NCBI GenBank assembly: GCA_034522495.1
Contig: JAXHLG010000002.1
Location: forward strand, 401,541-465,540
Length of the DNA stretch: 64,000 bases
Direction of reading: 5' to 3'
Source: Candidatus Moraniibacteriota bacterium
Lineage (GTDB): Bacteria > Patescibacteriota > Minisyncoccia > Moranbacterales > DUUL01
Under the pieces are notes generated by a model that ran no database searches, was not told the DNA's origin, and was given only the letters and a program-made list of their open reading frames with translations. Made by a program: the position numbers and the translations under genes. Every line of letters starts with the position of its first letter. Within the stretch, counting starts at the first letter, position 1. Shown piece by piece: positions 18,055-37,154 of the stretch.

Positions 18055-18366
18055 ATGGGAATGTTTAATTTTAAGAAGAAGAAAAAGGAAGAAGGAGAGC
18101 AAAAAGGCGATCAGATGGATCAGTTTGACGCTATGCTGAATCAGCTGGATGATTCCAAGATGTCAAGAAAAGAGCGATGGGCTTTGAAGCTGTTCAAGAA
18201 AATGCCGAAATCCAAAAGAGAAAAGGCTCTCAAAGAGGCTATGAATCCGCAAAACTTATACAAGGAAAAAGACAAAATTTTGAAGCAATTGGACGAGATG
18301 GTCAAAGACGGCCAGATGTCCAAAGAAGAGGCCGAGCAGATGAAAAGGCAGTTTGGGTTGAGATAG
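18055..18366 (+). CDS. Small K/E-rich hypothetical protein
   Basis: 103-aa ORF with no recognisable motif. Coding status rests only on ORF length and strand consistency. Confidence 0.4.
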   Translation: MGMFNFKKKKKEEGEQKGDQMDQFDAMLNQLDDSKMSRKERWALKLFKKMPKSKREKALKEAMNPQNLYKEKDKILKQLDEMVKDGQMSKEEAEQMKRQFGLR

Positions 18367-19129: not shown

Positions 19130-20797
19130 ATGGCTGGAGATAATCAGGGAGGGGAAAAGAATAAGAAAAATAGAAGAAATCAGTTGAGCTTGACGCCCGG
19201 AGTGGTGGGTTTGTTTGAAACGGCGTACGCGCAGCATAAAGAGAAGCAAAGCAAGAGTGGTGACAACGAGCCGAAAATAAAAGTTTCTACCGCTATCTCC
19301 AAGCTGTCTTTTTACTATGAAAAAATCCGCAACGCGGTGGACTATAAGGATGAGTATCTTCTCAGAAAAACTGCCATTGAAAGAATTTTAAAGAGGCAGA
19401 TTATTATCGAAAGCGTTCTTCAACCGGCCAAGAGCTCCAAGATTGCTCAGCATTTGATGATTGAGCTGATTCGAGGAGAGTATTTGGCAAACAACTCGGT
19501 TCCGGAAAAGAAAATAGATGAGGTTGCCAAGGTTGTTCAAAAGTATATCAAGCTTCACAACAAAGCCATCAGGGGAAGTTTGGCCTCCAAGCGCAACAAA
19601 GAACTGTCCGATTGGATAATAGCCTTGATGGCCAGCGAGATAGAAGAAGAATTGGGAAGAGATAAGGTGGTGGAGAAGGCGATCAGTTTTATGTTTCAGG
19701 TTTTAAGGGACAAGGTTATTTTACCCGATGACGCCGACTATAATCAAAACAAGGATATTCAAATATATGTTAGCATTTATCGAACCTTTCTCAAATTTGA
19801 TACCGATATGGTCAGCTTTATTTTATTTAAATCCGCTGTAGATAGTTGGAAAAACGCGGGCGAGGAGACCATTGAAAAAACAGCAAGAGAGCTGGACTCG
19901 ATCCGAGCCACTATTGAAAATCAAGTTAACAGCCCGATTTCCAATAAGCTAAAGAGAGTTATTTCCAGATACACGGTTTTTTTCGAGATTTTGACGGAGG
20001 TGATCAAAAAAGATCCGGTAAAGGCATATAGCAAGGCCAGCAGAGACCCGGACTCTTTCAGGGAAATGATACGGGAGAGTTGTAGGAAGAAATATGAGAC
20101 TGTCCGAGCTAAAATCTGGAGAGCCAGCTTCAGAAGCATTGTGTATATTTTCATAACCAAAAGCCTGCTGGTGTTTGCGCTTGAAATCCCCGTTATTAAT
20201 CTTTTGGGCGAGTCGGTGAATTATATTTCTTTGGCTGTGAACATCGGTTTTCCTCCGCTTCTTTTGTTTTCCATCATAATGACGACTAAAACGCCTACAA
20301 GCCGCAACACTCAAAAAATCATTGAAGGCATAGAGGGGCTGGTCCATCCCGGCAAGGAGGTTCAAGCGTATCGGCTGAGGACTTCCGCCTTGAGAGGAAA
20401 GACTTTGAACACGGTATTCGGAATTATTTATCTGGGAACTTTTTTGATAACTTTTGGAGGTATTGTTTGGATTTTGAATATGATAGGATTTCACTTTGTC
20501 AGCATCGTAATATTCTTGTTTTTCTTGGCTTTAGTTAGCTTCTTCAGCGCCAGAATCAGAAAAAAAGCTCATGAGCTGATGGTGGTGGAGCCCAAGGAGA
20601 GTATTTTCCGACTTTTCACCGACTTTTTCTACACCCCGGTTCTAGCGGCGGGAAAGTGGCTGAGCGAGAATTTCTCCAAACTGAACGTGTTCGTCATTGT
20701 TCTGGATTTCATCATCGAGGCCCCGTTCAAATTTTTCGTGGAAGCCACAGAGGAATGGTCCAAGTATGTCAAAGAGAGGAGAGAGGAGATAGAGTGA
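19130..20797 (+). CDS. Hypothetical protein with a soluble N-terminal half and a C-terminal multi-TM domain
   Basis: 555-aa ORF with hydrophobic helices from about aa 330 onward. No family recognised. Confidence 0.6.
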   Translation: MAGDNQGGEKNKKNRRNQLSLTPGVVGLFETAYAQHKEKQSKSGDNEPKIKVSTAISKLSFYYEKIRNAVDYKDEYLLRKTAIERILKRQIIIESVLQPAKSSKIAQHLMIELIRGEYLANNSVPEKKIDEVAKVVQKYIKLHNKAIRGSLASKRNKELSDWIIALMASEIEEELGRDKVVEKAISFMFQVLRDKVILPDDADYNQNKDIQIYVSIYRTFLKFDTDMVSFILFKSAVDSWKNAGEETIEKTARELDSIRATIENQVNSPISNKLKRVISRYTVFFEILTEVIKKDPVKAYSKASRDPDSFREMIRESCRKKYETVRAKIWRASFRSIVYIFITKSLLVFALEIPVINLLGESVNYISLAVNIGFPPLLLFSIIMTTKTPTSRNTQKIIEGIEGLVHPGKEVQAYRLRTSALRGKTLNTVFGIIYLGTFLITFGGIVWILNMIGFHFVSIVIFLFFLALVSFFSARIRKKAHELMVVEPKESIFRLFTDFFYTPVLAAGKWLSENFSKLNVFVIVLDFIIEAPFKFFVEATEEWSKYVKERREEIE

Positions 20798-22349: not shown

Positions 22350-22372
22350 TTGACAGGATTTATTATAGATAT
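22350..22372 (+). promoter_or_regulatory. Orphaned -35 half of the promoter of the 148-aa anchor-protein gene, split by IS copy 2
   Basis: TTGACA (22350-22355) plus 17 nt, then the IS end. The homologous intact promoter is at 32271-32298. Confidence 0.4.
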
Positions 22373-23704
22373 ATCACTCGTGTCCGGTTCACAAATCCCA
22401 CAAACAAGCCTGTTTTCCGCCGCTTCTTTTAAAATTTTGCAATTCAGGATTACTAAACAGCTCAACCATGGGAGTTTTAGTTAGGACTGACACGTTCAAA
22501 ATTTGTAATATTTCGTAGAGGTTCTTTTCAATCTTCCATTGTTTTTTGAAAATGGCTACTACAAGATAAGCGCAAATGGCAATGCAGATTTGGGTTTTTA
22601 CCGCGTTCTCTGAGCGGCCCCAGAAGGCTTTGATCTTGAGATGCTGCTTGATCCACTTGAAAAACAATTCAATTTGCCAGCGGTGCTTGTACAGGGCGGC
22701 TATTTTCTCAGCAGAAAGATTAAAATCGTTGCTCAAGTAAGTGAAATACTTTTTGCTTTCTTGATCAAAGAATTTAATCCTCCTTAATTTCTCCGGATAC
22801 CTCTTAGAGCTTTTCCAATTGCTAAGCTTGATTATCTGATCGCAGCAAATCCCTGTTCCTTTTTCCTTCCTGTTGGAATAAATTCTTTCAAATCCCAGAC
22901 ACTCCTTGGCTCTGATAACAAAGAAGGCTCCTTTTCGGTGAATTTTGTAAAGCCTGCCGTAATCTATGTAGCCCCGGTCCAGAATGTAATGCGCTTCCGG
23001 TTCAATTTCGATCGAATCCAGGAATTCCAGATCGTGCCTTTTGGCGCTAGTGATTTCAAACATGGCGGGAATATTGCCGTCAAGGTCCATTTGCAGATTC
23101 AGCTTCACCCCGGCTCTTACAGTCTTGAGCTTGGCCCAGGAGAAAAGAGAAAGGCAGAGTTCGATTACCGATGAATCTATAATGTAGCAAGCCCCGTTCA
23201 GTTCCAAATTAAAATTGTCATCGCCTGCATACAGCTTTCTGGCTTTATCAATCAATATTCCCGCCAGGTCCCTGTAAATCCTCCAATCCCTTTTTTCGCT
23301 GGCATCGGAAAGAGTTGATCTTGAAATAATGCTGGAAAAACCCAAGTTGCGGATTTTTCCCTGCTGGGAGCTCAAGCAGTTGACAACGTCCCGGAGACTT
23401 TCCCGATGAGAAATCTGCCCAAAAAAGAGAGCTAGGAATTGATTCCAGCAAGTAAGTTTTTTTACTGCCGAATTGCCCCGGTATCTATCCACGCATCGGT
23501 TGAATTCATAACGTGGGATGTGATCTGCAAGCTGAGAAAGAACATATTTTCCATGATACATTTGAGTAATTGATAATTGCTTAAAAAACAATATCAATTA
23601 TCCCATTATTTCCGTTCAAGCCAAAAAAAATTCTTGTCCCTTGATTTTGGCTCTGGAAAGCCAAAATCAGGAGATGAGAAAAAAATTAACCGGACACGAG
23701 TGAT
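22373..23704 (-). mobile_element. IS4-family insertion sequence, copy 2 (1332 bp), same orientation as copy 1
   Basis: Same 17-bp TIRs. Flanking direct repeat agatat (or atagatatat). The transposase and all listed spurious ORFs translate identically to copy 1. Confidence 0.9.
22389..23597 (-). CDS. IS4-family DDE transposase (identical to 20859..22067)
   Basis: 402-aa translation identical to copy 1. Confidence 0.85.
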   Translation of the reverse strand: MILFFKQLSITQMYHGKYVLSQLADHIPRYEFNRCVDRYRGNSAVKKLTCWNQFLALFFGQISHRESLRDVVNCLSSQQGKIRNLGFSSIISRSTLSDASEKRDWRIYRDLAGILIDKARKLYAGDDNFNLELNGACYIIDSSVIELCLSLFSWAKLKTVRAGVKLNLQMDLDGNIPAMFEITSAKRHDLEFLDSIEIEPEAHYILDRGYIDYGRLYKIHRKGAFFVIRAKECLGFERIYSNRKEKGTGICCDQIIKLSNWKSSKRYPEKLRRIKFFDQESKKYFTYLSNDFNLSAEKIAALYKHRWQIELFFKWIKQHLKIKAFWGRSENAVKTQICIAICAYLVVAIFKKQWKIEKNLYEILQILNVSVLTKTPMVELFSNPELQNFKRSGGKQACLWDL

Positions 23705-23749
23705 AGATATATTATAAAGAATAAGTATTGAAATTTTTAAAAAACCAAA

Positions 23750-24196
23750 ATGCAAAATAAAAAGACGGTTATATTGATAGTTTTGATTGTTCTACTCCTT
23801 TCAGGAGTGGGAGTTTTCGGGTATTTGATTTATGCGGAAAAAAACAAACAAGCAAAGGAGATTCAGGGAGAAGTCTCAAAGCAGAAAAATCTTCAAGACA
23901 ACCAAAATCAATCGAAGGTTAAAGAATTAAAAAGTTTCGAGGGCATGGTTAAGGCCAGGGAGGAAAACTTTTTGAGGGTGGAATTTAGTTATGAAGGAAA
24001 AACGTGGCAGTCTAAAGTTGATAAAAACGAGGAAACTTTTATCGGGAAAGCTTCAAGAGATGAAAACTCTTTTCCTCAAGAGTTGGCCATGGAAGAAATT
24101 AAAGAAGGAGACTTGGTAATTGTTAGTTCTCAAGAAAACATATTGGCCAAAGAATCGTTTCCGGCTAGCATGATAATGGTGGCGGAAAAAAAATAG
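23750..24196 (+). CDS. Small N-terminally membrane-anchored protein, paralog family member 1
   Basis: MQNKKTVILIVLIVLLLSGVGVFGYLIYAEK. The N-terminus and 5' UTR are homologous to 32331..32723. Confidence 0.65.
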   Translation: MQNKKTVILIVLIVLLLSGVGVFGYLIYAEKNKQAKEIQGEVSKQKNLQDNQNQSKVKELKSFEGMVKAREENFLRVEFSYEGKTWQSKVDKNEETFIGKASRDENSFPQELAMEEIKEGDLVIVSSQENILAKESFPASMIMVAEKK

Positions 24197-24202
24197 AAAT
24201 TT

Positions 24203-26879
24203 CTTTTCGGCGCGCGCGAAAAAAGCAGTTGAAAAAAGCGGGTCAACAGCCCCATAAAACGCCAAGGCCGTTCATATATATCTTAGGGAAAAAGCTATGA
24301 AATATTTAAATAAATCAAGTCCGATATCCTGTATATTATTATTGGCCTTGTTTTCCCTCCTCTTTTCCTTCTCAACGCTAGGCGGCAATAACGCTTCAGC
24401 TGTTGTTATGATACCCTCGGGAGAAGACGGCGCTGAGGATAAAACAATTGCTGATATTAGCATCAGCCAATTAAAAGTGGTTGAACAAAAAGACCATCAA
24501 GTCAAGCTGTCTTTTGCTGTTTACAATCTTTCCAACAGATTTCAGCCGGATGTTGAATATGGCATAAGATTATTCAGGAAAGAGGCGGTTGAGTCGGAGC
24601 ACGGCACGGAAGAAGAGGGAACAAGCTCCAAAGAGTTTCACCCGGGGGATGTCTTGTATGAGAAAATAGATCCCGAGAGCATGGATTTATCTCCAGGAGA
24701 GAAAATTGACAAGAAAGAGGCCTACGAGATGCCTTCCCATCTGGAAGGAGAATTCCTAATCCAGTTATTTGCCAAGACTTCCTCCGGCCTGTTTTTGGGT
24801 ATGGCCGAAACTGAAGTTGTAAAAATGGAAAAAGGAGAAGACGGCATAGAGCTGGACCACAAAGAATGCCGCCTTCTGAAGAATTCCAATACAGAAGAAG
24901 AATACGCTCTGTCCGATCCGATATACATTAATTCTCAAGAGCAATTAGCCATCAAATGCTTATTGAGCAATGATTCCCCGGAAACAAGAACGATAATGCC
25001 CGCCTTTGATATTTATGAAGAAAGCATTTTCGGGGAAAAAATAGAAACGGAATCAAACCCCGGCAAGATTTCAATTGAACCGAAAGAATCCAGAGAGATA
25101 AGCCTGAATGTACCGAAAACTAAATCCCCCGGTTCGTATTATGCTGCTTTGCATTTAAAGCAGGGGGAAGCGGCGGTTTCTAACAGGATATATTTCAACT
25201 ATGCCGTAGAAGGGTTATCCGCCTCCATTTATGACATCAAGGCGAATCAAGAAGAAAATCAAAACATCTCGGTTTCTTTTTACTGGAGCGGAATCAGGGA
25301 GAATTTTGCTCCCGGGACTCAAGAAAGGCCAAGCCCAAAAAATCAAGACCTTCAACTAAGCCTAAGAATCGTTGACCAGCATGGAAAAGACTGCGCTTCT
25401 CCCGTAACAAAATCTTTAAGCGGCGAAAAGAATTACTCGGAATTTTCTACTTCCGTGATCAAAAGCTGCGCTTCTCCTTACGCGGAAGCCAAGATAAAAA
25501 ACCAAAAAGGCGAGGTTCTCGACGAAATTAAAGTTAGAGCCGCCTCCATGGAAAAGAAAGAAAAGAAAGAAGCTGCTCCCGGGGAAAACGCTTCCGAGGA
25601 CAACGCCCTGATTTTAATTGCCTCAGCTCTGATTGTTTTGTTCTTGATTTTTCTTCTGTGGTGGCTTTTGGTTAAGAAAAAGCTGCTCAAAAAGAGCTTT
25701 CTGGCCTTGTTTGTCTTTTTGTCAGCTTTTGTTTTTCTGGCATGGGATATTGGAGAGGTGAACGCGGGAGGTTGGAAATGGCTTGGTTATCGTATGCTAG
25801 GATATACTAGTCAACCTAACCACTGGGAACCTAAGGATTATTACACATATCATTATTATGAAGATGAAAGCTACCCCGCTCAGGCGGATGATGAGATTAC
25901 CGGTCAAATTTATGGGAAACTTTATGGAAAGCACTGTAGCGGCTGGATGAAGGTTAACGGTGTTACGGTGTGGCGCCTACGGTTTCCAACAGACTTTGGC
26001 AGTGGTTCTGGTCCTGGTACTTATATTAGCGGTCAAAGGAGCTGGCCGCATGGATGTGAAGGTACTTACCGGGTTGAATATGAGTGGATGTTTAATTATG
26101 ATAGTAGTGGTGATGGTGTTTGCAACGAAACAGCTGAAGGAGATAACACTCAGAAGTATAAAATTATTTGCGATGAAGCCGAAGATTATCGCTGCCGCTG
26201 GAATAGCGTGTGGAAATACGACGCCTGCGGCTGCCCCGACGAATATATTGAAAGCTGCCCCACCGGATACTGCGATTACGGAGGCGACGTGGATTATTAT
26301 TGTTCCGGAGACAAGCTGATGGGCGTGTATGATTACGTAAGACAAGGCTGCCGGGCGGGAGCTTGCTATACTGGCAATGTATGGCACAACTCCTGCGGAT
26401 CATTTGTAAAAGAGGATTGCTCTGATCTGCCCAACTATTGCGAAGAGTGGGATGATGACTGGACTTGTAAAGACGAAACCACGAAAATGAAAAGCAGGGA
26501 ATGCTATAATTCCGGCTGTTCTTCCGCCTCTTGCTACGGAGATTCATATACTGAAACTAAAGAAGAGGAATGCTTGAAAGACGGAGTTCAGGGCAGATGC
26601 ATCAACGGCGCTTGTTTCTATCAAGGAGCCTGCGGCAGCGCAAATGACTCGGATCCGACGTGCGAGGCGCCGAAAGACAATTTATGTTTAATTAATTTTT
26701 ATGACGACCCAGTGGTCCGGTACGACAGCGCTGACGGCGATAAGTCAAAAGACAAATACTACTGGACCTGCGAAGGAGCCGATCAAGACAGCGATCAGGA
26801 TGATGCTAATTGCAGCGTGGAAAGAGATTGCCAAGTAACGTCAGAGGGCTGGCGCGAGGCGTCGTTTTGATTGTTCTGC
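24203..26879 (+). repeat. Tandem repeat unit 1 (2677 bp)
   Basis: Starts at cttttcggcgcgcgcgaaaaaagc. The same junction recurs at 26880 and 29560. Confidence 0.95.
24297..26870 (+). CDS. Surface protein, copy 1 (857 aa): signal peptide, about 430-aa N-terminal domain, TM hairpin, Cys-rich C-terminal domain
   Basis: SP LLLALFSLLFSFSTLGGNNASA. TM1 ALILIASALIVLFLIFLLWWLLV, loop KKKLLKKS, TM2 FLALFVFLSAFVFLAW. 28 Cys after TM2 (my count). Terminal CGSAN...LC...YWTC...CSV module. Confidence 0.8.
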   Translation: MKYLNKSSPISCILLLALFSLLFSFSTLGGNNASAVVMIPSGEDGAEDKTIADISISQLKVVEQKDHQVKLSFAVYNLSNRFQPDVEYGIRLFRKEAVESEHGTEEEGTSSKEFHPGDVLYEKIDPESMDLSPGEKIDKKEAYEMPSHLEGEFLIQLFAKTSSGLFLGMAETEVVKMEKGEDGIELDHKECRLLKNSNTEEEYALSDPIYINSQEQLAIKCLLSNDSPETRTIMPAFDIYEESIFGEKIETESNPGKISIEPKESREISLNVPKTKSPGSYYAALHLKQGEAAVSNRIYFNYAVEGLSASIYDIKANQEENQNISVSFYWSGIRENFAPGTQERPSPKNQDLQLSLRIVDQHGKDCASPVTKSLSGEKNYSEFSTSVIKSCASPYAEAKIKNQKGEVLDEIKVRAASMEKKEKKEAAPGENASEDNALILIASALIVLFLIFLLWWLLVKKKLLKKSFLALFVFLSAFVFLAWDIGEVNAGGWKWLGYRMLGYTSQPNHWEPKDYYTYHYYEDESYPAQADDEITGQIYGKLYGKHCSGWMKVNGVTVWRLRFPTDFGSGSGPGTYISGQRSWPHGCEGTYRVEYEWMFNYDSSGDGVCNETAEGDNTQKYKIICDEAEDYRCRWNSVWKYDACGCPDEYIESCPTGYCDYGGDVDYYCSGDKLMGVYDYVRQGCRAGACYTGNVWHNSCGSFVKEDCSDLPNYCEEWDDDWTCKDETTKMKSRECYNSGCSSASCYGDSYTETKEEECLKDGVQGRCINGACFYQGACGSANDSDPTCEAPKDNLCLINFYDDPVVRYDSADGDKSKDKYYWTCEGADQDSDQDDANCSVERDCQVTSEGWREASF

Positions 26880-29559
26880 CTTTTCGGCGCGCGCGAAAAA
26901 AGCAGTTGAAAAAAGCGGGTCAACAGCCCCATAAAACGCCAAGGCCGTTCATATATATCTTAGGGAAAAAGCTATGAAATATTTAAATAAATCAAGTCCG
27001 ATATCCTGTATATTATTATTGGCCTTGTTTTCCCTCCTCTTTTCCTTCTCAACGCTAGGCGGCAATAACGCTTCAGCTGTTGTTATGATACCCTCGGGAG
27101 AAGACGGCGCTGAGGATAAAACAATTGCTGATATTAGCATCAGCCAATTAAAAGTGGTTGAACAAAAAGACCATCAAGTCAAGCTGTCTTTTGCTGTTTA
27201 CAATCTTTCCAACAGATTTCAGCCGGATGTTGAATATGGCATAAGATTATTCAGGAAAGAGGCGGTTGAGTCGGAGCACGGCACGGAAGAAGAGGGAACA
27301 AGCTCCAAAGAGTTTCACCCGGGGGATGTCTTGTATGAGAAAATAGATCCCGAGAGCATGGATTTATCTCCAGGAGAGAAAATTGACAAGAAAGAGGCCT
27401 ACGAGATGCCTTCCCATCTGGAAGGAGAATTCCTAATCCAGTTATTTGCCAAGACTTCCTCCGGCCTGTTTTTGGGTATGGCCGAAACTGAAGTTGTAAA
27501 AATGGAAAAAGGAGAAGACGGCATAGAGCTGGACCACAAAGAATGCCGCCTTCTGAAGAATTCCAATACAGAAGAAGAATACGCTCTGTCCGATCCGATA
27601 TACATTAATTCTCAAGAGCAATTAGCCATCAAATGCTTATTGAGCAATGATTCCCCGGAAACAAGAACGATAATGCCCGCCTTTGATATTTATGAAGAAA
27701 GCATTTTCGGGGAAAAAATAGAAACGGAATCAAACCCCGGCAAGATTTCAATTGAACCGAAAGAATCCAGAGAGATAAGCCTGAATGTACCGAAAACTAA
27801 ATCCCCCGGTTCGTATTATGCTGCTTTGCATTTAAAGCAGGGGGAAGCGGCGGTTTCTAACAGGATATATTTCAACTATGCCGTAGAAGGGTTATCCGCC
27901 TCCATTTATGACATCAAGGCGAATCAAGAAGAAAATCAAAACATCTCGGTTTCTTTTTACTGGAGCGGAATCAGGGAGAATTTTGCTCCCGGGACTCAAG
28001 AAAGGCCAAGCCCAAAAAATCAAGACCTTCAACTAAGCCTAAGAATCGTTGACCAGCATGGAAAAGACTGCGCTTCTCCCGTAACAAAATCTTTAAGCGG
28101 CGAAAAGAATTACTCGGAATTTTCTACTTCCGTGATCAAAAGCTGCGCTTCTCCTTACGCGGAAGCCAAGATAAAAAACCAAAAAGGCGAGGTTCTCGAC
28201 GAAATTAAAGTTAGAGCCGCCTCCATGGAAAAGAAAGAAAAGAAAGAAGCTGCTCCCGGGGAAAACGCTTCCGAGGACAACGCCCTGATTTTAATTGCCT
28301 CAGCTCTGATTGTTTTGTTCTTGATTTTTCTTCTGTGGTGGCTTTTGGTTAAGAAAAAGCTGCTCAAAAAGAGCTTTCTGGCCTTATTTGTCTTTTTGTC
28401 AGCTTTTGTTTTTCTGGCATGGGATATTGGAGAGGTGAACGCGGGAGGTTGGAAATGGCTTGGTTATCAAATGCTAGGATATAGTTATCAGGATGGACAT
28501 ACTTATGTATATCATTATTATAATGATGAAAACTACTCCTGGTCGGTGGATAATTGGCAGGCGGATGATGAGATCACCGGTCGAATTTTTGGGAGACTTT
28601 ATGGAAAGCACTGCAATGGCTGGATGAAGGTTAACGGTGTTACGGTGTGGCGCCTACGGTTTCCAACAGACTTTGGTAGTAGTTCTGGTCCTGGTACTTC
28701 TGTTAGCGGTCAAAGGAGCTGGCCGCATGGATGCGCCGAAGGTACCTATCGGGTTAAATATGAGTGGATGTTTAATTATGATAGTAGTGGTGATGGTGTT
28801 TGCAACGAAACAGCTGAAGGAGATCTCACTCAGAAGTATAAAATTATTTGCGATGAAGCCGAAGATTATCGCTGCCGCCGGAATAGCGTGTGGAAATACG
28901 ACGCCTGCGACTGTCCCGACGAATATATTGAAAGCTGCCCCACCGGATACTGCGATTACGGAGGCGACGTGGATTATTATTGTTCCGGAGACAAGCTGAT
29001 GGGCGTGTATGATTACGTAAGACAAGGCTGCCGGGCGGGAGCTTGCTATACTGGCAATGTATGGCACAACTCCTGCGGATCATTTGTAAAAGAGGATTGC
29101 TCTGATCTGCCCAACTATTGCGAAGAGTGGGATGATGACTGGACTTGTAAAGACGAAACCACGAAAATGAAAAGCAGGGAATGCTATAATTCCGGCTGTT
29201 CTTCCGCCTCTTGCTACGGAGATTCATATACTGAAACTAAAGAAGAGGAATGCTTGAAAGACGGAGTTCAGGGCAGATGCATCAACGGCGCTTGTTTCTA
29301 TCAAGGAGCCTGCGGCAGCGCAAATGAATCGGAGTCGACATGCGAGGCGCCGAAAGACAATTTATGTTTAATTAATTTTTATGACGACCCAGTGGTCCGG
29401 TACGACAGCGCTGACGGCGATAAGTCAAAAGACAAATACTACTGGACCTGCGAAGGAGCCGATCAAGACAGCGATCAGGATGATGCTAATTGCAGCGTGG
29501 AAAGAGATTGCCAAGTAACGTCAGAGGGCTGGCGCGAGGCGTCGTTTTGATTGTTCTGC
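26880..29559 (+). repeat. Tandem repeat unit 2 (2680 bp)
   Basis: ORF start offset 26974-24297 = 2677. Identical upstream 94 nt. Confidence 0.95.
26974..29550 (+). CDS. Surface protein, copy 2 (858 aa)
   Basis: First 498 aa identical to copy 1. Different variable cassette. Private substitutions CRRNS, ACDCP, ANESESTCE. Confidence 0.8.
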   Translation: MKYLNKSSPISCILLLALFSLLFSFSTLGGNNASAVVMIPSGEDGAEDKTIADISISQLKVVEQKDHQVKLSFAVYNLSNRFQPDVEYGIRLFRKEAVESEHGTEEEGTSSKEFHPGDVLYEKIDPESMDLSPGEKIDKKEAYEMPSHLEGEFLIQLFAKTSSGLFLGMAETEVVKMEKGEDGIELDHKECRLLKNSNTEEEYALSDPIYINSQEQLAIKCLLSNDSPETRTIMPAFDIYEESIFGEKIETESNPGKISIEPKESREISLNVPKTKSPGSYYAALHLKQGEAAVSNRIYFNYAVEGLSASIYDIKANQEENQNISVSFYWSGIRENFAPGTQERPSPKNQDLQLSLRIVDQHGKDCASPVTKSLSGEKNYSEFSTSVIKSCASPYAEAKIKNQKGEVLDEIKVRAASMEKKEKKEAAPGENASEDNALILIASALIVLFLIFLLWWLLVKKKLLKKSFLALFVFLSAFVFLAWDIGEVNAGGWKWLGYQMLGYSYQDGHTYVYHYYNDENYSWSVDNWQADDEITGRIFGRLYGKHCNGWMKVNGVTVWRLRFPTDFGSSSGPGTSVSGQRSWPHGCAEGTYRVKYEWMFNYDSSGDGVCNETAEGDLTQKYKIICDEAEDYRCRRNSVWKYDACDCPDEYIESCPTGYCDYGGDVDYYCSGDKLMGVYDYVRQGCRAGACYTGNVWHNSCGSFVKEDCSDLPNYCEEWDDDWTCKDETTKMKSRECYNSGCSSASCYGDSYTETKEEECLKDGVQGRCINGACFYQGACGSANESESTCEAPKDNLCLINFYDDPVVRYDSADGDKSKDKYYWTCEGADQDSDQDDANCSVERDCQVTSEGWREASF

Positions 29560-32235
29560 CTTTTCGGCGCGCGCGAAAAAAGCAGTTGAAAAAAGCGGGT
29601 CAACAGCCCCATAAAACGCCAAGGCCGTTCATATATATCTTAGGGAAAAAGCTATGAAATATTTAAATAAATCAAGTCCGATATCCTGTATATTATTATT
29701 GGCCTTGTTTTCCCTCCTCTTTTCCTTCTCAACGCTAGGCGGCAATAACGCTTCAGCTGTTGTTATGATACCCTCGGGAGAAGACGGCGCTGAGGATAAA
29801 ACAATTGCTGATATTAGCATCAGCCAATTAAAAGTGGTTGAACAAAAAGACCATCAAGTCAAGCTGTCTTTTGCTGTTTACAATCTTTCCAACAGATTTC
29901 AGCCGGATGTTGAATATGGCATAAGATTATTCAGGAAAGAGGCGGTTGAGTCGGAGCACGGCACGGAAGAAGAGGGAACAAGCTCCAAAGAGTTTCACCC
30001 GGGGGATGTCTTGTATGAGAAAATAGATCCCGAGAGCATGGATTTATCTCCAGGAGAGAAAATTGACAAGAAAGAGGCCTACGAGATGCCTTCCCATCTG
30101 GAAGGAGAATTCCTAATCCAGTTATTTGCCAAGACTTCCTCCGGCCTGTTTTTGGGTATGGCCGAAACTGAAGTTGTAAAAATGGAAAAAGGAGAAGACG
30201 GCATAGAGCTGGACCACAAAGAATGCCGCCTTCTGAAGAATTCCAATACAGAAGAAGAATACGCTCTGTCCGATCCGATATACATTAATTCTCAAGAGCA
30301 ATTAGCCATCAAATGCTTATTGAGCAATGATTCCCCGGAAACAAGAACGATAATGCCCGCCTTTGATATTTATGAAGAAAGCATTTTCGGGGAAAAAATA
30401 GAAACGGAATCAAACCCCGGCAAGATTTCAATTGAACCGAAAGAATCCAGAGAGATAAGCCTGAATGTACCGAAAACTAAATCCCCCGGTTCGTATTATG
30501 CTGCTTTGCATTTAAAGCAGGGGGAAGCGGCGGTTTCTAACAGGATATATTTCAACTATGCCGTAGAAGGGTTATCCGCCTCCATTTATGACATCAAGGC
30601 GAATCAAGAAGAAAATCAAAACATCTCGGTTTCTTTTTACTGGAGCGGAATCAGGGAGAATTTTGCTCCCGGGACTCAAGAAAGGCCAAGCCCAAAAAAT
30701 CAAGACCTTCAACTAAGCCTAAGAATCGTTGACCAGCATGGAAAAGACTGCGCTTCTCCCGTAACAAAATCTTTAAGCGGCGAAAAGAATTACTCGGAAT
30801 TTTCTACTTCCGTGATCAAAAGCTGCGCTTCTCCTTACGCGGAAGCCAAGATAAAAAACCAAAAAGGCGAGGTTCTCGACGAAATTAAAGTTAGAGCCGC
30901 CTCCATGGAAAAGAAAGAAAAGAAAGAAGCTGCTCCCGGGGAAAACGCTTCCGAGGACAACGCCCTGATTTTAATTGCCTCAGCTCTGATTGTTTTGTTC
31001 TTGATTTTTCTTCTGTGGTGGCTTTTGGTTAAGAAAAAGCTGCTCAAAAAGAGCTTTCTGGCCTTATTTGTCTTTTTGTCAGCTTTTGTTTTTCTGGCAT
31101 GGGATATTGGAGAGGTGAACGCGGGAGGTTGGAAATGGCTTGGTTATCAAATGCTAGGATATAGTTATCAGGATGGACATACTTATGTATATCATTATTA
31201 TAATGATGAAAACTACTCCTGGTCGGTGGATAATTGGCAGGCGGATGATGAGATCACCGGTCGAATTTTTGGGAGACTTTATGGAAAGCACTGCAATGGC
31301 TGGATGAAGGTTAACGGTGTTACGGTGTGGCGCCTACGGTTTCCAACAGACTTTGGTAGTAGTTCTGGTCCTGGTACTTCTGTTAGCGGTCAAAGGAGCT
31401 GGCCGCATGGATGCGCCGAAGGTACCTATCGGGTTAAATATGAGTGGATGTTTAATTATGATAGTAGTGGTGATGGTGTTTGCAACGAAACAGCTGAAGG
31501 AGATCTCACTCAGAAGTATAAAATTATTTGCGATGAAGCCGAAGATTATCGCTGCCGCTGGAATAGCGTGTGGAAATACGACGCCTGCGGCTGCCCCGAC
31601 GAATATATTGAAAGCTGCCCCACCGGATACTGCGATTACGGAGGCGACGTGGATTATTATTGTTCCGGAGACAAGCTGATGGGCGTGTATGATTACGTAA
31701 GACAAGGCTGCCGGGCGGGAGCTTGCTATACTGGCAATGTATGGCACAACTCCTGCGGATCATTTGTAAAAGAGGATTGCTCTGATCTGCCCAACTATTG
31801 CGAAGAGTGGGATGATGACTGGACTTGTAAAGACGAAACCACGAAAATGAAAAGCAGGGAATGCTATAATTCCGGCTGTTCTTCCGCCTCTTGCTACGGA
31901 GATTCATATACTGAAACTAAAGAAGAGGAATGCTTGAAAGACGGAGTTCAGGGCAGATGCATCAACGGCGCTTGTTTCTATCAAGGAGCCTGCGGCAGCG
32001 CAAATGACTCGGATCCGACGTGCGAGGCGCCGAAAGACAATTTATGTTTAATTAATTTTTATGACGACCCAGTGGTCCGGTACGACAGCGCTGACGGCGA
32101 TAAGTCAAAAGACAAATACTACTGGACCTGCGAAGGAGCCGATCAAGACAGCGATCAGGATGATGCTAATTGCAGCGTGGAAAGAGATTGCCAAGTAACG
32201 TCAGAGGGCTGGCGCGAGGCGTCGTTTTGATTGTT
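29560..32235 (+). repeat. Tandem repeat unit 3 (ends just after the stop codon)
   Basis: ORF start offset 29654-26974 = 2680. Homology ends at tgattgtt|aataaagg. Confidence 0.95.
29654..32230 (+). CDS. Surface protein, copy 3 (858 aa), chimeric between copy 2 (5' part) and copy 1 (3' part)
   Basis: The variable cassette equals copy 2. Downstream sites (CRWNS, ACGCP, ANDSDPTCE) equal copy 1. Confidence 0.8.
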   Translation: MKYLNKSSPISCILLLALFSLLFSFSTLGGNNASAVVMIPSGEDGAEDKTIADISISQLKVVEQKDHQVKLSFAVYNLSNRFQPDVEYGIRLFRKEAVESEHGTEEEGTSSKEFHPGDVLYEKIDPESMDLSPGEKIDKKEAYEMPSHLEGEFLIQLFAKTSSGLFLGMAETEVVKMEKGEDGIELDHKECRLLKNSNTEEEYALSDPIYINSQEQLAIKCLLSNDSPETRTIMPAFDIYEESIFGEKIETESNPGKISIEPKESREISLNVPKTKSPGSYYAALHLKQGEAAVSNRIYFNYAVEGLSASIYDIKANQEENQNISVSFYWSGIRENFAPGTQERPSPKNQDLQLSLRIVDQHGKDCASPVTKSLSGEKNYSEFSTSVIKSCASPYAEAKIKNQKGEVLDEIKVRAASMEKKEKKEAAPGENASEDNALILIASALIVLFLIFLLWWLLVKKKLLKKSFLALFVFLSAFVFLAWDIGEVNAGGWKWLGYQMLGYSYQDGHTYVYHYYNDENYSWSVDNWQADDEITGRIFGRLYGKHCNGWMKVNGVTVWRLRFPTDFGSSSGPGTSVSGQRSWPHGCAEGTYRVKYEWMFNYDSSGDGVCNETAEGDLTQKYKIICDEAEDYRCRWNSVWKYDACGCPDEYIESCPTGYCDYGGDVDYYCSGDKLMGVYDYVRQGCRAGACYTGNVWHNSCGSFVKEDCSDLPNYCEEWDDDWTCKDETTKMKSRECYNSGCSSASCYGDSYTETKEEECLKDGVQGRCINGACFYQGACGSANDSDPTCEAPKDNLCLINFYDDPVVRYDSADGDKSKDKYYWTCEGADQDSDQDDANCSVERDCQVTSEGWREASF

Positions 32236-32270
32236 AATAAAGGAAAAAGATTGATAAGGTAAAAGTTTTA

Positions 32271-32298
32271 TTGACAGGTTTTTCTCGAGATGTATTAT
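32271..32298 (+). promoter_or_regulatory. Sigma70-like promoter of the 130-aa anchor-protein gene
   Basis: TTGACA (32271-32276), 16-nt spacer, TATTAT (32293-32298). Homologous to the split promoter at 22350 / 23705. Confidence 0.45.
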
Positions 32299-32330
32299 AG
32301 GAGATAAGTACTGAAATTAAAAAAACCAAA

Positions 32331-32723
32331 ATGCAAAATAAAAAAATGGTTATATTAATAGTTTTGATTGTTTTAGTCCTCTTGTGTGCAGGAGTTTTTG
32401 GTTATTTGATTTATGCGGAAAAAGCTGAGCAAAAAAAGTCGGGACGAAACAATCAGGATTTGTTAGATCAAGAAAAGGAGGATGAGGGAAAAGAAGAAAA
32501 AAGCTGGGGTGATATGTCGGATGAAGAAAAGGATAAAATTTTGAACGAGAGAGTTCCCTTGGAAGAGTCATCAGGTGGCACTAATGATAATAGTGAAACA
32601 GGTGGCGGGAACACCAAGATTCATTCAGAAGAAGAGGTGCAGGGGTTGCTTCTTAATGAAAGAGAGTCTGCGCCGGAAGGAGGACCCACCAAAGAGGACG
32701 CACTCAAGGTTTTAAATGAATAA
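32331..32723 (+). CDS. Small N-terminally membrane-anchored protein, paralog family member 2
   Basis: MQNKKMVILIVLIVLVLLCAGVFGYLIYAEK followed by an acidic, low-complexity ectodomain. Confidence 0.65.
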   Translation: MQNKKMVILIVLIVLVLLCAGVFGYLIYAEKAEQKKSGRNNQDLLDQEKEDEGKEEKSWGDMSDEEKDKILNERVPLEESSGGTNDNSETGGGNTKIHSEEEVQGLLLNERESAPEGGPTKEDALKVLNE

Positions 32724-32762
32724 TTGCTGTTATCTTAAGATTTTATAATTAAAATAATAATA

Positions 32763-34889
32763 ATGAAAAAAATAGTAAATTTTGCGAATTGGTCGCTGGG
32801 AGTAGCTTTGCTTGGCATGTTCGGAGGTTTGATCCTTCAAAAAGTTGAGGCATGGAGTGAGCCGCCTGATAGTCCACCCAATTCAAATGTTGGAGCGCCT
32901 CTTAATACCGGAGAGCAAGGACAAATGAAACAAGCCAAGTTGATTTTGAACATGCCGGCTGATGATGGCAGTGTCCAAACAAGCGGCTTGCTTGTTCCTT
33001 ACGGGAAAGTAGGATTAGGAACATTGTTTCCGGAGTCCAAGTTGCACATAGAAGAAAGCCTTACAACTGATACCTCTGGATACGGGGATGTCACTATGGA
33101 CGCTACCATTAGAACCGGAGCTGTTAATTATGATGGCGGTTATGGTGACTGGCCGGCCGGATTTTCTGTAAAGGTCAATGATGTCGACACTAATCTTCCC
33201 GGCGGCAGTGCAGGAATAGAGGTTTATAGCGGTATTGACGGTGTTTCCAGAGCTACTATGTTAGTTAATGCAGACTGGCAGGGAAAGACAGGAAAGCCAA
33301 CCTGGGGCGCGCTCTTGGGAGTGGTTCAAGATAGAATCAACACTCGCGGATTTGCATCTTGGATTGAAGATGGTTTGGATAACAAAGTAGATGGAAGCCA
33401 TGCTTATCTAAGCAACAGGGATAGTGACGGAAAGCTATTTTCAGGAAAGTTCGAAGGAGACGTTTATGTAAGAGATGATTTAGGTGTCGGAACAAGAGAT
33501 CCCAATGAAAAGTTGGATGTAAGAGGCAACATTGTTGCTAGCGGAACCATTTGCGATACCAATGGATGTATTGGAGATGGAGGAGGATCTTCTTTGTGGA
33601 ATCAAAACGGGAGTGATATTTATTATAATGGGGGTAACGTTGGCATTGGCAGAAACAATCCGCAGGATGAACTCGATGTTAATGGAGATCTATTGTTAAG
33701 CAAAGAAGATATTTATGCGGATACTTTTAGTTTCGGCAATGCAGCTAAAGTCTATACGGGAAGAAATGACGGATATTTGCTTCTTGCGGGGGGTAATGCC
33801 CAAGGGGACACAACAAATGGATCCGTCTTGGCGTTAACCGGGAAAAATATAAGCGATAGCTTTAGCGGTGTTCAGCCAAGGGATGACGGGGTAATAGCAG
33901 CTGGGATAAAAGGAAACTCTAACGGTTTTTACGTTTATGATTACAATACTTTTCAATGGCGTTTTAGCGTAAACGCCGAAAGAACATATGTTCATGATAA
34001 CCTTGGTGTCGGAACTGAAAATCCGCTGGGTAAGCTCCACGTAGAGGAGGAGAAGGTAACTAACGTAGCTGGAACGGATTATACTATGGATGCCACTATT
34101 CGGACCGGAGCGGTTAATTATACGGGCTATGGAGATTATCCCGCCGGCTTGTCGGTCAAAGTCAATAGTATTAGCAATGATGTGCCTGGAGGGACTGCTG
34201 GAGTAGAAGTTTACAGCGGTAAAGATAATGTTTCAAGGGCTACATTGCTGGTAAATGGGGATTGGGACAACAACGGAAGAGATACCTGGGGAGCTATTTT
34301 GGGAGTAGTGAAAGATGGAAATAATGTTAGAGGCTTGAATACTTGGATAGAGAGTGATTTAGGTGGCAGCAGCAAGTCCGGTGACGCTAAATTAAGTTAT
34401 AAGGATCCAAGCGGAAACCTTTATTCGGCATACTTTAGTGATTATGTATATGTAAACGACGATTTAAGGGTGAATGGGACGGTGCACCATAAAGGATTAA
34501 ATAATTACTCGGATATGAGGTTGAAGCAATCTGTAAATTCAATAGAGGGGTCTTCGTTGGAAAAACTGACCAAGCTTAGAGGAGTTTCTTTTGAATGGAA
34601 AGATAATCCGGGAGAAAAAGAAATTGGATTGATCGCTCAAGAAGTAGAAAAAATATACCCGGAATTAGTTGAGGAGGACAGAGAAGGAATGAAGGGAGTA
34701 CAATATTCTGCATTGGTAGCTCCAATTATAGAGGCTGTTAAAGAGCTAAAAGAAAGCTTTAGCGAAGTTAAAGACAAAATAGCAATTATCTTTGAAAGAC
34801 AAGATCGCCAAGCAGACTTATTAGAGCAACAAAATGAGCGGATTAAAGAGCTGGAAAGCAAAATAGAGGAATTGAAAAAAGCAGAATAA
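32763..34889 (+). CDS. Secreted tail-fibre-like protein with a C-terminal Peptidase_S74 intramolecular chaperone domain
   Basis: Signal/anchor WSLGVALLGMFGGLILQKVEA. Internal duplication of about 165 aa. C-terminus from 34509: SDMRLKQSVNSIEG..LRGVSFEWKD..EIGLIAQEVEKIYPELV..VQYSALVAPIIEAVKEL plus a coiled coil. Confidence 0.8.
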   Translation: MKKIVNFANWSLGVALLGMFGGLILQKVEAWSEPPDSPPNSNVGAPLNTGEQGQMKQAKLILNMPADDGSVQTSGLLVPYGKVGLGTLFPESKLHIEESLTTDTSGYGDVTMDATIRTGAVNYDGGYGDWPAGFSVKVNDVDTNLPGGSAGIEVYSGIDGVSRATMLVNADWQGKTGKPTWGALLGVVQDRINTRGFASWIEDGLDNKVDGSHAYLSNRDSDGKLFSGKFEGDVYVRDDLGVGTRDPNEKLDVRGNIVASGTICDTNGCIGDGGGSSLWNQNGSDIYYNGGNVGIGRNNPQDELDVNGDLLLSKEDIYADTFSFGNAAKVYTGRNDGYLLLAGGNAQGDTTNGSVLALTGKNISDSFSGVQPRDDGVIAAGIKGNSNGFYVYDYNTFQWRFSVNAERTYVHDNLGVGTENPLGKLHVEEEKVTNVAGTDYTMDATIRTGAVNYTGYGDYPAGLSVKVNSISNDVPGGTAGVEVYSGKDNVSRATLLVNGDWDNNGRDTWGAILGVVKDGNNVRGLNTWIESDLGGSSKSGDAKLSYKDPSGNLYSAYFSDYVYVNDDLRVNGTVHHKGLNNYSDMRLKQSVNSIEGSSLEKLTKLRGVSFEWKDNPGEKEIGLIAQEVEKIYPELVEEDREGMKGVQYSALVAPIIEAVKELKESFSEVKDKIAIIFERQDRQADLLEQQNERIKELESKIEELKKAE

Positions 34890-34908
34890 ATAAATCTTAA
34901 AGAAATTT

Positions 34909-35244
34909 ATGAAAAATGTAGTTTTAATTTTAATTGTTATCTTTGTTGTTGCTAGTGGATATTTTGGGTGGATGATTTACAAGGGGGACTCTAATGATAA
35001 AGAGGTGTCAGACAAAAATGTTTCTTCACCTAAAGAATCCCAAAAAGACAACCTTGATTCAACAAGCAATAACACCCAAATAAATACTAAACCGAGCAAT
35101 GGAGAAGATGATCCTGTAGGCACAAAAGATGCTGAATCTAGAACTTTGCCCGGTGGAGCGAACCGTGACACAACAACTGAAGTTGAAAGTAAAGAGGAAA
35201 GTGAAACGTCGAAGCCTTTTCCAAGGGTTCCGCAGGATGGTTAA
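34909..35244 (+). CDS. Small N-terminally membrane-anchored protein, paralog family member 3 (more distant)
   Basis: MKNVVLILIVIFVVASGYFGWMIYKG followed by a low-complexity S/T/D/E-rich tail. Confidence 0.55.
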   Translation: MKNVVLILIVIFVVASGYFGWMIYKGDSNDKEVSDKNVSSPKESQKDNLDSTSNNTQINTKPSNGEDDPVGTKDAESRTLPGGANRDTTTEVESKEESETSKPFPRVPQDG

Positions 35245-35311
35245 TGATTTAGAATAATAAAGATTGCAAAATTTTGTGGAAAAAGTGTGGATAAGTGAAT
35301 AGAGATTTTGG

Positions 35312-35339
35312 AAAAATGGCCTAAAAAGGCCATTTTTTT
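35312..35339 (+). terminator. Intrinsic terminator closing the surface island
   Basis: aaaaatggcc-taaaaa-ggccattttt followed by ttg. Confidence 0.7.
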
Positions 35340-35546: not shown

Positions 35547-35981
35547 ATGTTCATCGGCGAGTATCAACATTCTATTGACGCGAAAAAGAGGCTGGCTATG
35601 CCTTCCAAGTTCAGGCGGAACTTTAAAAATAAAGCGGTGGTGACGAGGGGTTTGGACAATTGCTTGTTTGTTTACCCGATGAAAGAGTGGGAAAAGATTG
35701 CGGAGAAACTTGGCAATATGCCGGTGGGGGAAAGCGCCACCAGAAGCTTTGTCAGGCTTATGCTTGCCGGAGCGGTGGATGTGGAGCTGGATTCTCAGGG
35801 AAGGGTTTTGGTTCCGGATTATTTGAAAAAATACGCCGGCCTGAACAAAGAAGTGGTTATCGCCGGTTTGTATAATCGGTTGGAAATTTGGGACAAGAAG
35901 AACTGGGAAAAATACAAAGAAAGCGCCGAAAAGAATCAGGACAAAATTGCGGAGGAATTGGGAAAGCTGGGAATATATTGA
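35547..35981 (+). CDS. mraZ: Transcriptional regulator MraZ
   Basis: MFIGEYQHSIDAKKRLAMPSKFR..., a second DxxGR repeat (ELDSQGRVLVPDYL), position upstream of rsmH. Confidence 0.95.
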   Translation: MFIGEYQHSIDAKKRLAMPSKFRRNFKNKAVVTRGLDNCLFVYPMKEWEKIAEKLGNMPVGESATRSFVRLMLAGAVDVELDSQGRVLVPDYLKKYAGLNKEVVIAGLYNRLEIWDKKNWEKYKESAEKNQDKIAEELGKLGIY

Positions 35982-36092: not shown

Positions 36093-37154
36093 ATGCATAT
36101 TCCGGTTTTGTTGGGGGAGGCGGTTGAAAAATTAAATTTAAAAAAAGGGGATGCGGTTGTGGACGCCACTCTGGGGGGAGGCGGGCACAGCCGGGAAATA
36201 ATGAATAAAATTGGCAAAAATGGTATATTAGTTGCCTTTGACCTGGATTCAGAAGCTGTCTCTGAATTTGAAAAATCTCTGAAAAAACAAAAAAAGGAGC
36301 CGGAAGTTTTTTTGAAAATTGAAAATTTTGCCAAAATCGACGAAGTTCTTGAATCGGAAAATTTGAGCAAAGTTGATGCGATTCTTGCTGACTTGGGCTG
36401 GCGGTCCGATCAAATGGAGAATGAGAATTATGGAATGAGCTTTCAAAAGGACTCTCCTCTGGATATGCGACTAGCCCCGAACCATACGGTACTGGGCAAG
36501 GCTCAGAACCATGCGGATCGGGGCAAGGTCCAGAACCATGCGGTACGGGGCAACGCCCAGAACCATGCGGTACGGGGCAACGCCCAGAACCATGCGGTAC
36601 TGGGTAAAACAGGAGGGTTGACGGCTGGAGAAATTGTCAATACTTGGAAAGCTGAAGATTTAAAAAGATTGTTCAAGGAATATGGAGAAGAGAAATTTGC
36701 CGGAAGAGCGGCCAAGGCTATTGAAAAACAAAGAAAAATCAAGGAAATAGAGACAACGAAAGAGTTGTCTGAGGTAATTAAAAAAGCTATTGGCGGGCAT
36801 TACAAAACAGCTAAGATTCATCCGGCTACCCGAGTCTTCCAAGCTTTAAGAATTGCAGTTAATAATGAGTTGGAGAATTTGCGGGAATTTTTGGAAGCCA
36901 GTCTGAGGATACTCAAGCCGGGAGGGAGGATTGCAATTATCAGTTTCCACTCGCTGGAGGACAGGACGGTTAAAAAATTCTTTCGGGTAAATGCCGGGGG
37001 ATGTATTTGCCCAAAAGAATTTCCGGTGTGCGTTTGCGGCAAGAAGCCAAAGATTAAAATCATCACCAAAAAGCCGATTACTCCGACTGATGAAGAAATT
37101 AGACGGAACCCGAGGTCTCGGAGCGCCAAGATGCGCGTAGCGGAAAAATTATAA
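36093..37154 (+). CDS. rsmH: 16S rRNA (cytosine1402-N4)-methyltransferase RsmH with an in-frame repeat insertion
   Basis: HIPVLLGEAVEKL, DATLGGGGHS, DLGWRSDQ, PLDMRL, ISFHSLEDRTVKKFF, plus dcw context. Confidence 0.95.
   Translation: MHIPVLLGEAVEKLNLKKGDAVVDATLGGGGHSREIMNKIGKNGILVAFDLDSEAVSEFEKSLKKQKKEPEVFLKIENFAKIDEVLESENLSKVDAILADLGWRSDQMENENYGMSFQKDSPLDMRLAPNHTVLGKAQNHADRGKVQNHAVRGNAQNHAVRGNAQNHAVLGKTGGLTAGEIVNTWKAEDLKRLFKEYGEEKFAGRAAKAIEKQRKIKEIETTKELSEVIKKAIGGHYKTAKIHPATRVFQALRIAVNNELENLREFLEASLRILKPGGRIAIISFHSLEDRTVKKFFRVNAGGCICPKEFPVCVCGKKPKIKIITKKPITPTDEEIRRNPRSRSAKMRVAEKL
36479..36613 (+). repeat. In-frame tandem repeat, 27-bp unit x about 5, inside rsmH
   Basis: Units start at 36479, 36506, 36533, 36560, 36587 (gaaccatgcggtacggggcaacgccca). 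They encode QNHAVRGNA-type nonapeptides. Confidence 0.9.

Follow-up and report, generated by a model that had tools for sequence, protein, structure and literature searches.

Introduction

In this article, I describe a block of surface-protein genes from a Candidatus Moraniibacteriota bacterium (order Moranbacterales; GenBank assembly GCA_034522495.1, 1.33 Mb in 3 contigs, 94.6% complete), lying at positions 23,750 to 35,244 of a 64,000-nucleotide stretch of contig JAXHLG010000002.1 (forward strand, 401,541 to 465,540). That whole stretch is called the window, and coordinates without a contig prefix refer to it. The block encodes three small membrane proteins (anchors 1 to 3), three tandem cysteine-rich proteins of 857 or 858 amino acids (aa) and a 708-aa fibre-like protein, and comparison of gene neighbourhoods across the order shows small bitopic proteins of these kinds to be cognate, co-inherited neighbours of secreted cargo with a shared W-x-E motif. 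The explanation I favour, and to which I would give about an even chance, treats the block as an inserted segment, mobile or accessory, with two units of a lineage-conserved surface cassette, in which the small proteins hold or assemble the cargo. The question that it addresses is how ultra-small bacteria of the candidate phyla radiation (CPR)/Patescibacteria attach to their hosts, and how large, fast-evolving, disulfide-rich surface proteins are retained by a cell without sortase; the pairing of small protein and cargo is probably how such a cell holds or assembles its surface proteins.

A recurring cassette of cargo and small membrane partners

The locus and its relatives form a compact recurring set of parts, with two classes of cargo that share an end motif and two classes of small membrane partner. 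Class A proteins are secreted, Cys-rich and carry C-x(5-12)-[GS]-W-x-E at the extreme C-terminus, often followed by x-x-P (CGWIETNP, for example); all three tandem proteins of the block belong here, each ending ...ERDCQVTSEGWREASF with at most four residues (x(0-4)) after the W-x-E. Class B proteins have the motif in a signal-anchor that ends ...Q-F-x-[RK]-A-W-[VT]-E-P-x-x-x-P-P, ahead of a body that takes one of two forms, small and Cys-rich or an S74 fibre; the 708-aa protein is of this class (...LILQKVEAWSEPPDSPP; head VEAWSEPPDSPP), its signal-anchor ending in A-W-x-E-P with K-V-E in place of the F-x-x found in most B proteins. Class C comprises small bitopic proteins with an OB/DUF5666-like ectodomain, recurring beside A and B genes across the order, and includes anchor 1. 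Class c' proteins are about 110-150 aa long, consist of a transmembrane (TM) helix and a polar/acidic tail with about three short amphipathic repeats, and are often encoded between A and B. The block thus reads as unit 1, a C gene followed by three A genes, and unit 2, of the form c'-B-c'' (anchor 2, the S74 fibre-like protein and anchor 3):

23750..24196, plus strand: anchor 1, 148 aa, class C
24297..26870, plus strand: A-type cargo copy 1, 857 aa
26974..29550, plus strand: A-type cargo copy 2, 858 aa
29654..32230, plus strand: A-type cargo copy 3, 858 aa
32271..32298, plus strand: promoter of anchor 2, B and anchor 3, sigma-70-like (TTGACA, 16 nucleotides, TATTAT; 11/12 matches), intact
32331..32723, plus strand: anchor 2, 130 aa, class c'
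32763..34889, plus strand: B-type cargo, 708 aa, with C-terminal Peptidase_S74
34909..35244, plus strand: anchor 3, 111 aa, single TM
35310..35339, plus strand: intrinsic terminator hairpin, between an A-tract and a U-tract

The open reading frames (ORFs), their order, the tandem triplet and the fibre-like gene all lie where an earlier reading made from the sequence alone (the sequence-only reading) had placed them, and the strong terminator which it saw after anchor 3 is real by calculation (-15.9 kcal/mol, z = -3.1, with 0/200 shuffles equally stable). Unit 2 is set between its promoter and this terminator, with only 39 nucleotides between anchor 2 and B and 19 between B and anchor 3.

The same parts recur well beyond this genome, in the orders A-C-c'-B(S74)-C-Cys-rich (genome G072), A-C-B(S74)-x-C (G068), c'-B(S74)-Cys-rich (G160, of the same genus, where c' is the anchor-2 ortholog) and A-B-C in three tandem repeats (G103); the orders A-B-C and A-c'-B are kept in distant genera. 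Starting from the OB-type small genes, an A gene was found within two genes at 11 of 13 evaluable loci (P ~ 8e-17 against the own-genome frequency). Starting instead from B, at 18 loci not used before with 20 B units between them, a small gene with an N-terminal TM segment was a neighbour in 15 (7 of type C and 8 of type c') and an A gene lay within two genes in 10 (P = 4e-9 to 3e-6). Written as a DNA pattern, the B motif occurs at 50 sites in 32 of the 151 genomes of the order, spread over 22 of 76 genera, with 0 in a reversed control; an OB match lies within 3 kb of 20 of these 50 sites where 0.7 would be expected (P ~ 2e-22), and OB and B co-occur across the 151 genomes (Fisher p = 4e-4). 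All of these P values overstate independence because the loci share ancestry. In the genome at hand the strict ...ERDC....W.E tail is found in 5 genes at 3 loci, and at every locus a small gene with an N-terminal TM segment stands immediately upstream.

The sequence-only reading had framed the pairing as one of small single-pass proteins with large secreted ones, and in that general form I reject it: small N-terminal-TM genes make up 7.9% of genes in this genome, and they neighbour its large secreted genes in 11 of 70 cases against 15% expected, which is chance. The association is specific to W-x-E and A-W-x-E-P cargo, and for these it holds across the order. The idea of dedicated partners, voiced in that reading, draws support from these comparisons. 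The co-occurrence of anchor homologs with surface genes, which the same reading had put forward as a check, is likewise seen, with small proteins adjoining these cargo classes in many genera and the layout recurring in G072 and G068.

The small membrane proteins

The ectodomain of anchor 1 is confidently modelled as a beta-barrel, probably of the OB type and related to DUF5666. An AlphaFold2 run on a 21-sequence family alignment (mean predicted local distance difference test score, pLDDT, 86.8) gives a helix at residues 3-45 that forms the TM segment and a stalk, a weak linker and a barrel at residues 61-146 with pLDDT of about 98. The best Foldseek matches of this model in the PDB are all OB domains (the Rpt N-domain, LysRS, S1 and RPA), weak as they are (E 5e-3 to 5e-2, TM-scores 0.25-0.45), and Pfam DUF5666 (PF18914) matches 8 of the 21 aligned family members, with a best E = 5e-07. 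Like DUF5666, anchor 1 has a small all-beta barrel in the range of about 60-90 residues, and its relatives carry 2-10 tandem copies; a profile trimmed to the domain finds 3,683 clusters in 1.84 billion representative proteins, many of them with such tandem arrays. Neither the literature nor the Pfam record offered a function for DUF5666. In this genome the ectodomain profile matches only anchor 1 and the product of C2:284985-285449, a full-length paralog of 47% identity that adjoins a 347-aa A-type gene. A word-indexed search with anchor 1 gave 2 matches, and a search for related loci with the narrow-family alignment returned only two metagenome-assembled genomes of the same genus, JAWOGA01 and CAZDHE01. 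A 154-aa small protein upstream of a 560-aa A gene has weak OB-family similarity (hhalign probability 23%).

The three small proteins had been described as paralogous anchors, and this is too strong: anchors 1 and 2 share only a promoter-plus-TM cassette, and the ectodomains fall into at least two classes, OB-barrel and acidic-tail. Compared with the second of two insertion sequence (IS) copies removed in silico, anchors 1 and 2 have 155 bp in common at 81% identity, running from the -35 box through codon 31, and are unrelated beyond; the shared promoter, 5' untranslated region and TM segment with unrelated ectodomains had thus been seen correctly, except that the anchor-1 promoter is now split by the IS. 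The distant kinship claimed for anchor 3 shrinks to nothing more than a motif of 8-10 residues on the outward-facing end of the TM segment, G-[VY]-F-G-[YW]-[LM]-I-Y (composition-corrected BLAST E = 0.03-0.06 against six sequences).

Anchor 2 continues from the anchor-1 TM cassette into an acidic tail, probably disordered, with three ...[IL]LNE-like motifs, and it has positional and N-terminal orthologs directly upstream of B genes in G160. Anchor 3 is a single TM segment with a tail rich in Ser, Thr, Asn, Asp and Glu, and it sits after B, in the slot that an OB-type C protein occupies in other genomes. When compared with shuffled sequences, 8 of 12 c' proteins have significant three-fold short repeats, and anchor 2 (p3 = 0.11) and anchor 3 (p = 0.86) do not; since S74 fibres are trimers, it may be relevant that the repeats number three. 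The c' proteins of loci L091, L093, L090, L040 and L104 have triple motifs, such as DPEIIKSLTAP x3 and QEEIQKEFDAL x3.

In G160 (loci L050 and L051), a single TM sequence, FAIAGVFIYLSIQEK, is common to the OB-type and the acidic-type small proteins, and it differs from the GVFGYLIYAEK shared by the small proteins here. One TM sequence per genome suggests homogenisation of the TM cassette within a genome, or co-evolution with a common partner. None of this resembles a prepilin signal, G|F-T-L-x-E: the anchors start with MQNKK or MKN and then the TM segment, B has ...Q-F-x-x-A-W-x-E-P, and the true pilins elsewhere in this genome have KGFTLIE.

The cargo

The tandem A genes repeat with a period of 2677/2680 bp. 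From its N-terminus the 857-aa protein consists of a signal peptide, an ectodomain of about 440 aa and an acidic linker, followed by a TM helix, a K-rich loop and a second TM helix (a hairpin at about residues 457-510), a patch that varies between copies, and Cys-rich beta-hairpins (AlphaFold2 pLDDT 80-89) that lead into the W-x-E tail. It is close to an orphan, with no Pfam, NCBIfam or PHROG match, 2 matches in a word-indexed search and one distant homolog among 5.8 billion proteins; this sequence, P0005, is the only distant homolog of the N-terminal half, and its genomic context held nothing informative. Nearly all divergence among the copies is concentrated in one aromatic-rich patch after the second TM helix (25792-26146, 28469-28826 and 31149-31506). 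Copy 3 equals copy 2 within this patch and copy 1 at 7 downstream sites; it is a recombination or gene-conversion mosaic of the two. A GC hairpin with a T-run overlaps the stop codon of each copy (26850-26864, 29530-29544 and 32210-32224) and possibly serves to attenuate or weakly terminate transcription between the repeat units.

The two halves of the protein also occur apart. The 347-aa paralog corresponds to the C-terminal half, with a signal peptide of its own where the 857-aa protein has the second TM helix, and the homolog in the same-genus genome G100 (locus L031, G100:C5, 9196-12120, minus strand) is split into ORFs of 395 and 570 aa in the same frame, one for the N-terminal half and the other for the hairpin and Cys-rich half, with an in-frame stop 24 nucleotides before the next start and OB-type anchors on both sides. 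The second TM helix is possibly an internal signal peptide because it ends VNA|GG, and cleavage there would leave a base anchored in the membrane and set free the Cys-rich half that bears the tail. The exact ending W-x-E-T-N-P-stop has 1 true match in about 380 genomes outside the order, and this version of the tail is therefore restricted to the lineage.

The 708-aa B protein has a signal-anchor of the form W..GV...G...G...Q...A-W-S-E-P-P, an internally duplicated body, a Peptidase_S74 domain (PF13884; 59.2 bits over residues 583-636, cut-off 22) and a coiled coil. Fibres with an S74 domain are trimers, and the domain starts with YSDMRLKQ, which fits the S-D-x-R-L-K motif, in this family the site of self-cleavage after trimerisation.

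How the cassette might work

In the mechanism that I propose, the cargo would be exported by Sec, and the small proteins would remain in the membrane with a minimal cytoplasmic part (MQNKK), holding or assembling the cargo non-covalently at the outer face. The W-x-E end motif probably docks on the class C barrel, which is carried on a helical stalk, and the small-residue patterns of the TM segments (G-V-F-G in the anchors, G...G...G in B) suggest added helix-helix packing. The 857-aa precursor would be cut at VNA|GG into a membrane-anchored base and a released Cys-rich half bearing the tail, and the whole probably serves in attachment, to a host cell for instance. No sortase (PF04203) was detected in this 94.6%-complete genome by a search that found it in 3 control genomes, and the A cargo ends in W-x-E without a TM segment rather than in LPXTG, a TM segment and a basic tail; such a system would replace covalent wall anchoring because the cell has no sortase. 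A bolder version, which I put forward tentatively and would sooner doubt than believe, holds that W-x-E(-P) is a new TM-less sorting or retention signal, at the C-terminus of one cargo class and the mature N-terminus of the other, read by adjacent small bitopic receptors (a stalked OB barrel, or a tail that is acidic and has three repeats), in a two-component, non-covalent display that replaces sortase in Moranbacteria. If true, this display system would build the attachment surface of these episymbiont-like cells.

Several observations weigh against the view that the small proteins hold or assemble the cargo. I infer their contact with it from gene neighbourhood, and the neighbourhood is imperfect: a small partner is missing at 2 of this genome's 6 tail-bearing loci (C2:825212-826387 and C2:1087636-1090986) and from 5 of the 20 B units. 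The OB assignment has weak matches in the PDB (E >= 5e-3), and anchor 1 itself has no DUF5666 match at E<=1. The ectodomains of anchors 2 and 3 show no fold and no OB/DUF5666-like domain, and anchor 3 has no convincing ortholog. For the A tail, which may or may not be a free peptide, AlphaFold2 gives low confidence, with a pLDDT of 37-55 on an alignment of 7 sequences. Finally, unit 1 is possibly poorly expressed because the anchor-1 promoter is interrupted by an IS.

Competing explanations

The first competitor, unlikely in my judgement and still one to be taken seriously, makes the small proteins transient helpers in assembly or export, either holdases for disulfide-rich cargo or loaders onto type IV pili, that are released after folding. 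It draws on A/C pairs that lie in or beside pilin or type IV pilus clusters (here C2:1267339-1269862 and C2:1087636-1096389, elsewhere L038 and L042), on the S74 domain as an intramolecular chaperone which the B fibres carry themselves, showing that such cargo needs folding help, and on the approximately three amphipathic repeats of the c' proteins (significant in the same 8 of 12) next to fibres that are trimeric. However, most cassettes are found away from pilus genes, the block has no pilin gene, and the small proteins resemble no known chaperone family.

Rather unlikely, too, is that the small proteins are co-regulated envelope parts that never touch the cargo, whether as spacers or matrix, or as the product of a duplicated "promoter + signal-anchor" cassette from which new genes arise in rapidly evolving surface islands. 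The promoter-plus-TM cassette is indeed all that anchors 1 and 2 have in common, the OB-type and c'-type proteins of G160 share their TM sequence, anchors 2 and 3 are of low complexity, and small N-terminal-TM genes are frequent, at the 7.9% given above. Against this, the OB class is conserved between families of the order in its sequence as well as its position, co-localisation exceeds chance about 28-fold, and the orders A-B-C and A-c'-B are retained in distant genera.

Two further explanations are very improbable. That the ORFs of anchors 2 and 3 arose by chance in intergenic DNA and are no genes would suit their low-complexity ectodomains, which have no family match above noise, but the three anchor ORFs score +0.17 to +0.25 per codon for codon usage in the annotated frame only, resembling A, B and mraZ, where intergenic DNA is negative in all frames; the low-complexity or ectodomain parts of the small ORFs remain gene-like in that frame when scored alone, and anchor 2 has positional orthologs in G160, with similar small N-terminal-TM genes flanking B in many genomes. 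That the block is the remnant of a prophage or tailocin, with the 708-aa protein as tail fibre and the small TM proteins as holin-, spanin- or superinfection-exclusion-like products, would suit the many PHROG tail-fibre families that match the 708-aa C-terminus (E down to 6e-28) and the marginal matches of anchor 1 to Sie-like and Rz-like PHROGs (E 0.005-0.07), but the former are confined to the S74 domain and coiled coil (residues ~550-706), the block has no capsid, terminase, portal, tail-tube or integrase gene, the Sec-type signal-anchor of B is conserved in cellular genomes from the 22 genera counted above, and the same cassette adjoins ribosomal-protein operons in other genomes. With no virion genes and phage matches limited to the S74 end of one protein, I reject a prophage origin.

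An insertion next to mraZ

Returning to the block as an accessory insertion of cassette units, its site can be read from the flanking features:

18055..18366, plus strand: conserved small gene, ~105 aa, product ending ...LGLR; left edge of the insertion
19130..20797, plus strand: gene for a membrane protein of 555 aa, an orphan; lies within the inserted segment
20843..22175, minus strand: IS4-family IS copy 1, with a 402-aa transposase at 20859-22067
22350..22355, plus strand: anchor-1 -35 box, TTGACA, split from the -10 box by IS copy 2; the IS-removed site aligns with the intact anchor-2 promoter
22373..23705, minus strand: IS4-family IS copy 2, inside the anchor-1 promoter, with target duplication AGATAT
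23710..23715, plus strand: anchor-1 -10 box, TATTAT, downstream of IS copy 2
35547..35981, plus strand: mraZ (PF02381, E = 2e-42), at the head of the dcw cluster; right edge of the insertion

Homologs of the small gene (48-63% identity) lie between ftsX and mraZ in G065, G072, G051, G086, G058 and others, directly upstream of mraZ, and the order prfB-ftsE-ftsX-small gene-mraZ is kept in at least five genera of the family. Here about 17 kb separates the small gene from mraZ, taken up by a repeat element, the 555-aa gene, the two IS copies and the island. The block had been singled out as the only accessory segment between housekeeping operons, and its accessory nature is upheld by this position within a conserved junction; the 555-aa gene is accessory as well and not housekeeping. 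Its product has no Pfam or NCBIfam match and no homolog at E<=1e-10 in 27 genomes of the family, the genus included, and the gene arrived along with the island. The N-terminal half of this protein is soluble and the C-terminal half has multiple TM segments.

The two IS copies directly upstream of the block, also noticed in the sequence-only reading, are identical across 1333 bp, and their transposase matches the IS4 model NF033592 with 260 bits against a cut-off of 115. Since copy 2 splits the anchor-1 promoter, unit 1 may rely on a hybrid promoter at the IS end, where a TTAACC lies 16-18 nucleotides upstream of the -10 box and may form, together with TATTAT, a putative promoter for the unit.

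Genomes of the same genus carry other cargo at the ftsX/mraZ site, and the C-A-C locus of G100 is placed elsewhere; the block is therefore accessory and the site an insertion hot spot. The ftsX/mraZ-proximal position thus appears to be a recurrent insertion point. Upstream of mraZ in G100 (locus L111, G100:C2) stands unrelated cargo, among it a 486-aa protein whose N-terminus (…VIIVFHTSRFARN…) is resolvase-like. The locus puts the evolution of a surface island on display, from insertion at the ftsX-mraZ junction and mosaic tandem triplication to reuse of a promoter-plus-TM cassette and a promoter split by an IS.

Relation to known systems

Large, very Cys-rich proteins with signal peptides, unannotated and variable between strains, have been described in the Peribacteria, another CPR lineage, with a proposed role in attachment (Anantharaman et al., 2016; PMC4736985), and the three A copies are of the same kind. 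That paper describes no small partner genes, no [GS]-W-x-E end, no A-W-x-E-P signal-anchor class and no cassette, and its genomes encode sortase whereas this one does not. Similarly, DUF5666 is often found in tandem, whereas here it occurs once or twice per bitopic membrane protein in a fixed gene neighbourhood. The S74 domain followed by a coiled coil is shared by phage tail fibres and endosialidases and by the 708-aa protein, which in contrast is cellular, Sec-exported through a conserved signal-anchor, and encoded outside any phage context, with genes for small membrane proteins on either side.

In its proposed logic the cassette is like non-covalent display by a dedicated anchor, as with the high- and low-molecular-weight subunits of Clostridioides difficile SlpA, and like sortase/LPXTG anchoring in Gram-positives, in which secreted cargo is kept at the surface by a short terminal signal or a partner subunit; possible cleavage of the 857-aa precursor into base and cargo adds to the resemblance. 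However, the proteins are related to neither of these in sequence or domains, neither a sortase nor a wall-binding domain was found, the proposed anchor is a bitopic OB-barrel protein, and the signal is free of TM segments. The cassette, its end motifs and the partner classes have no match among Pfam or NCBIfam models, and a literature search on the motifs, DUF5666 and S74 in Patescibacteria found no paper describing the cassette. Cys-rich CPR surface proteins, DUF5666 and S74 are thus already known, and the cassette with its motifs and partner classes is undescribed.

Furthermore, some tail-bearing A proteins end pilin or pilB-pilC operons, here and in relatives, in the manner of PilY1/PilC-type adhesins, although there is no homology to these and the island and most cassettes are without pilin genes. 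One pilus cluster of this genome (C2:1087636-1096389) runs pilB-pilC-pilin-pilin and then encodes a 1116-aa protein ending W-x-E-x-x-P/L. A second type IV pilus or pseudopilin cluster (C2:1266745-1273999) holds pilins, a 428-aa anchor-like protein that starts MQNKK, a 406-aa protein and a pilin, again with a W-x-E-x-x-P/L ending.

Lastly, downstream of the insertion in the window, rsmH contains an in-frame run of about 5 units of 27 bp (36479-36613) that encodes ...QNHA[VD]RG[NK][AV]... within the methyltransferase.

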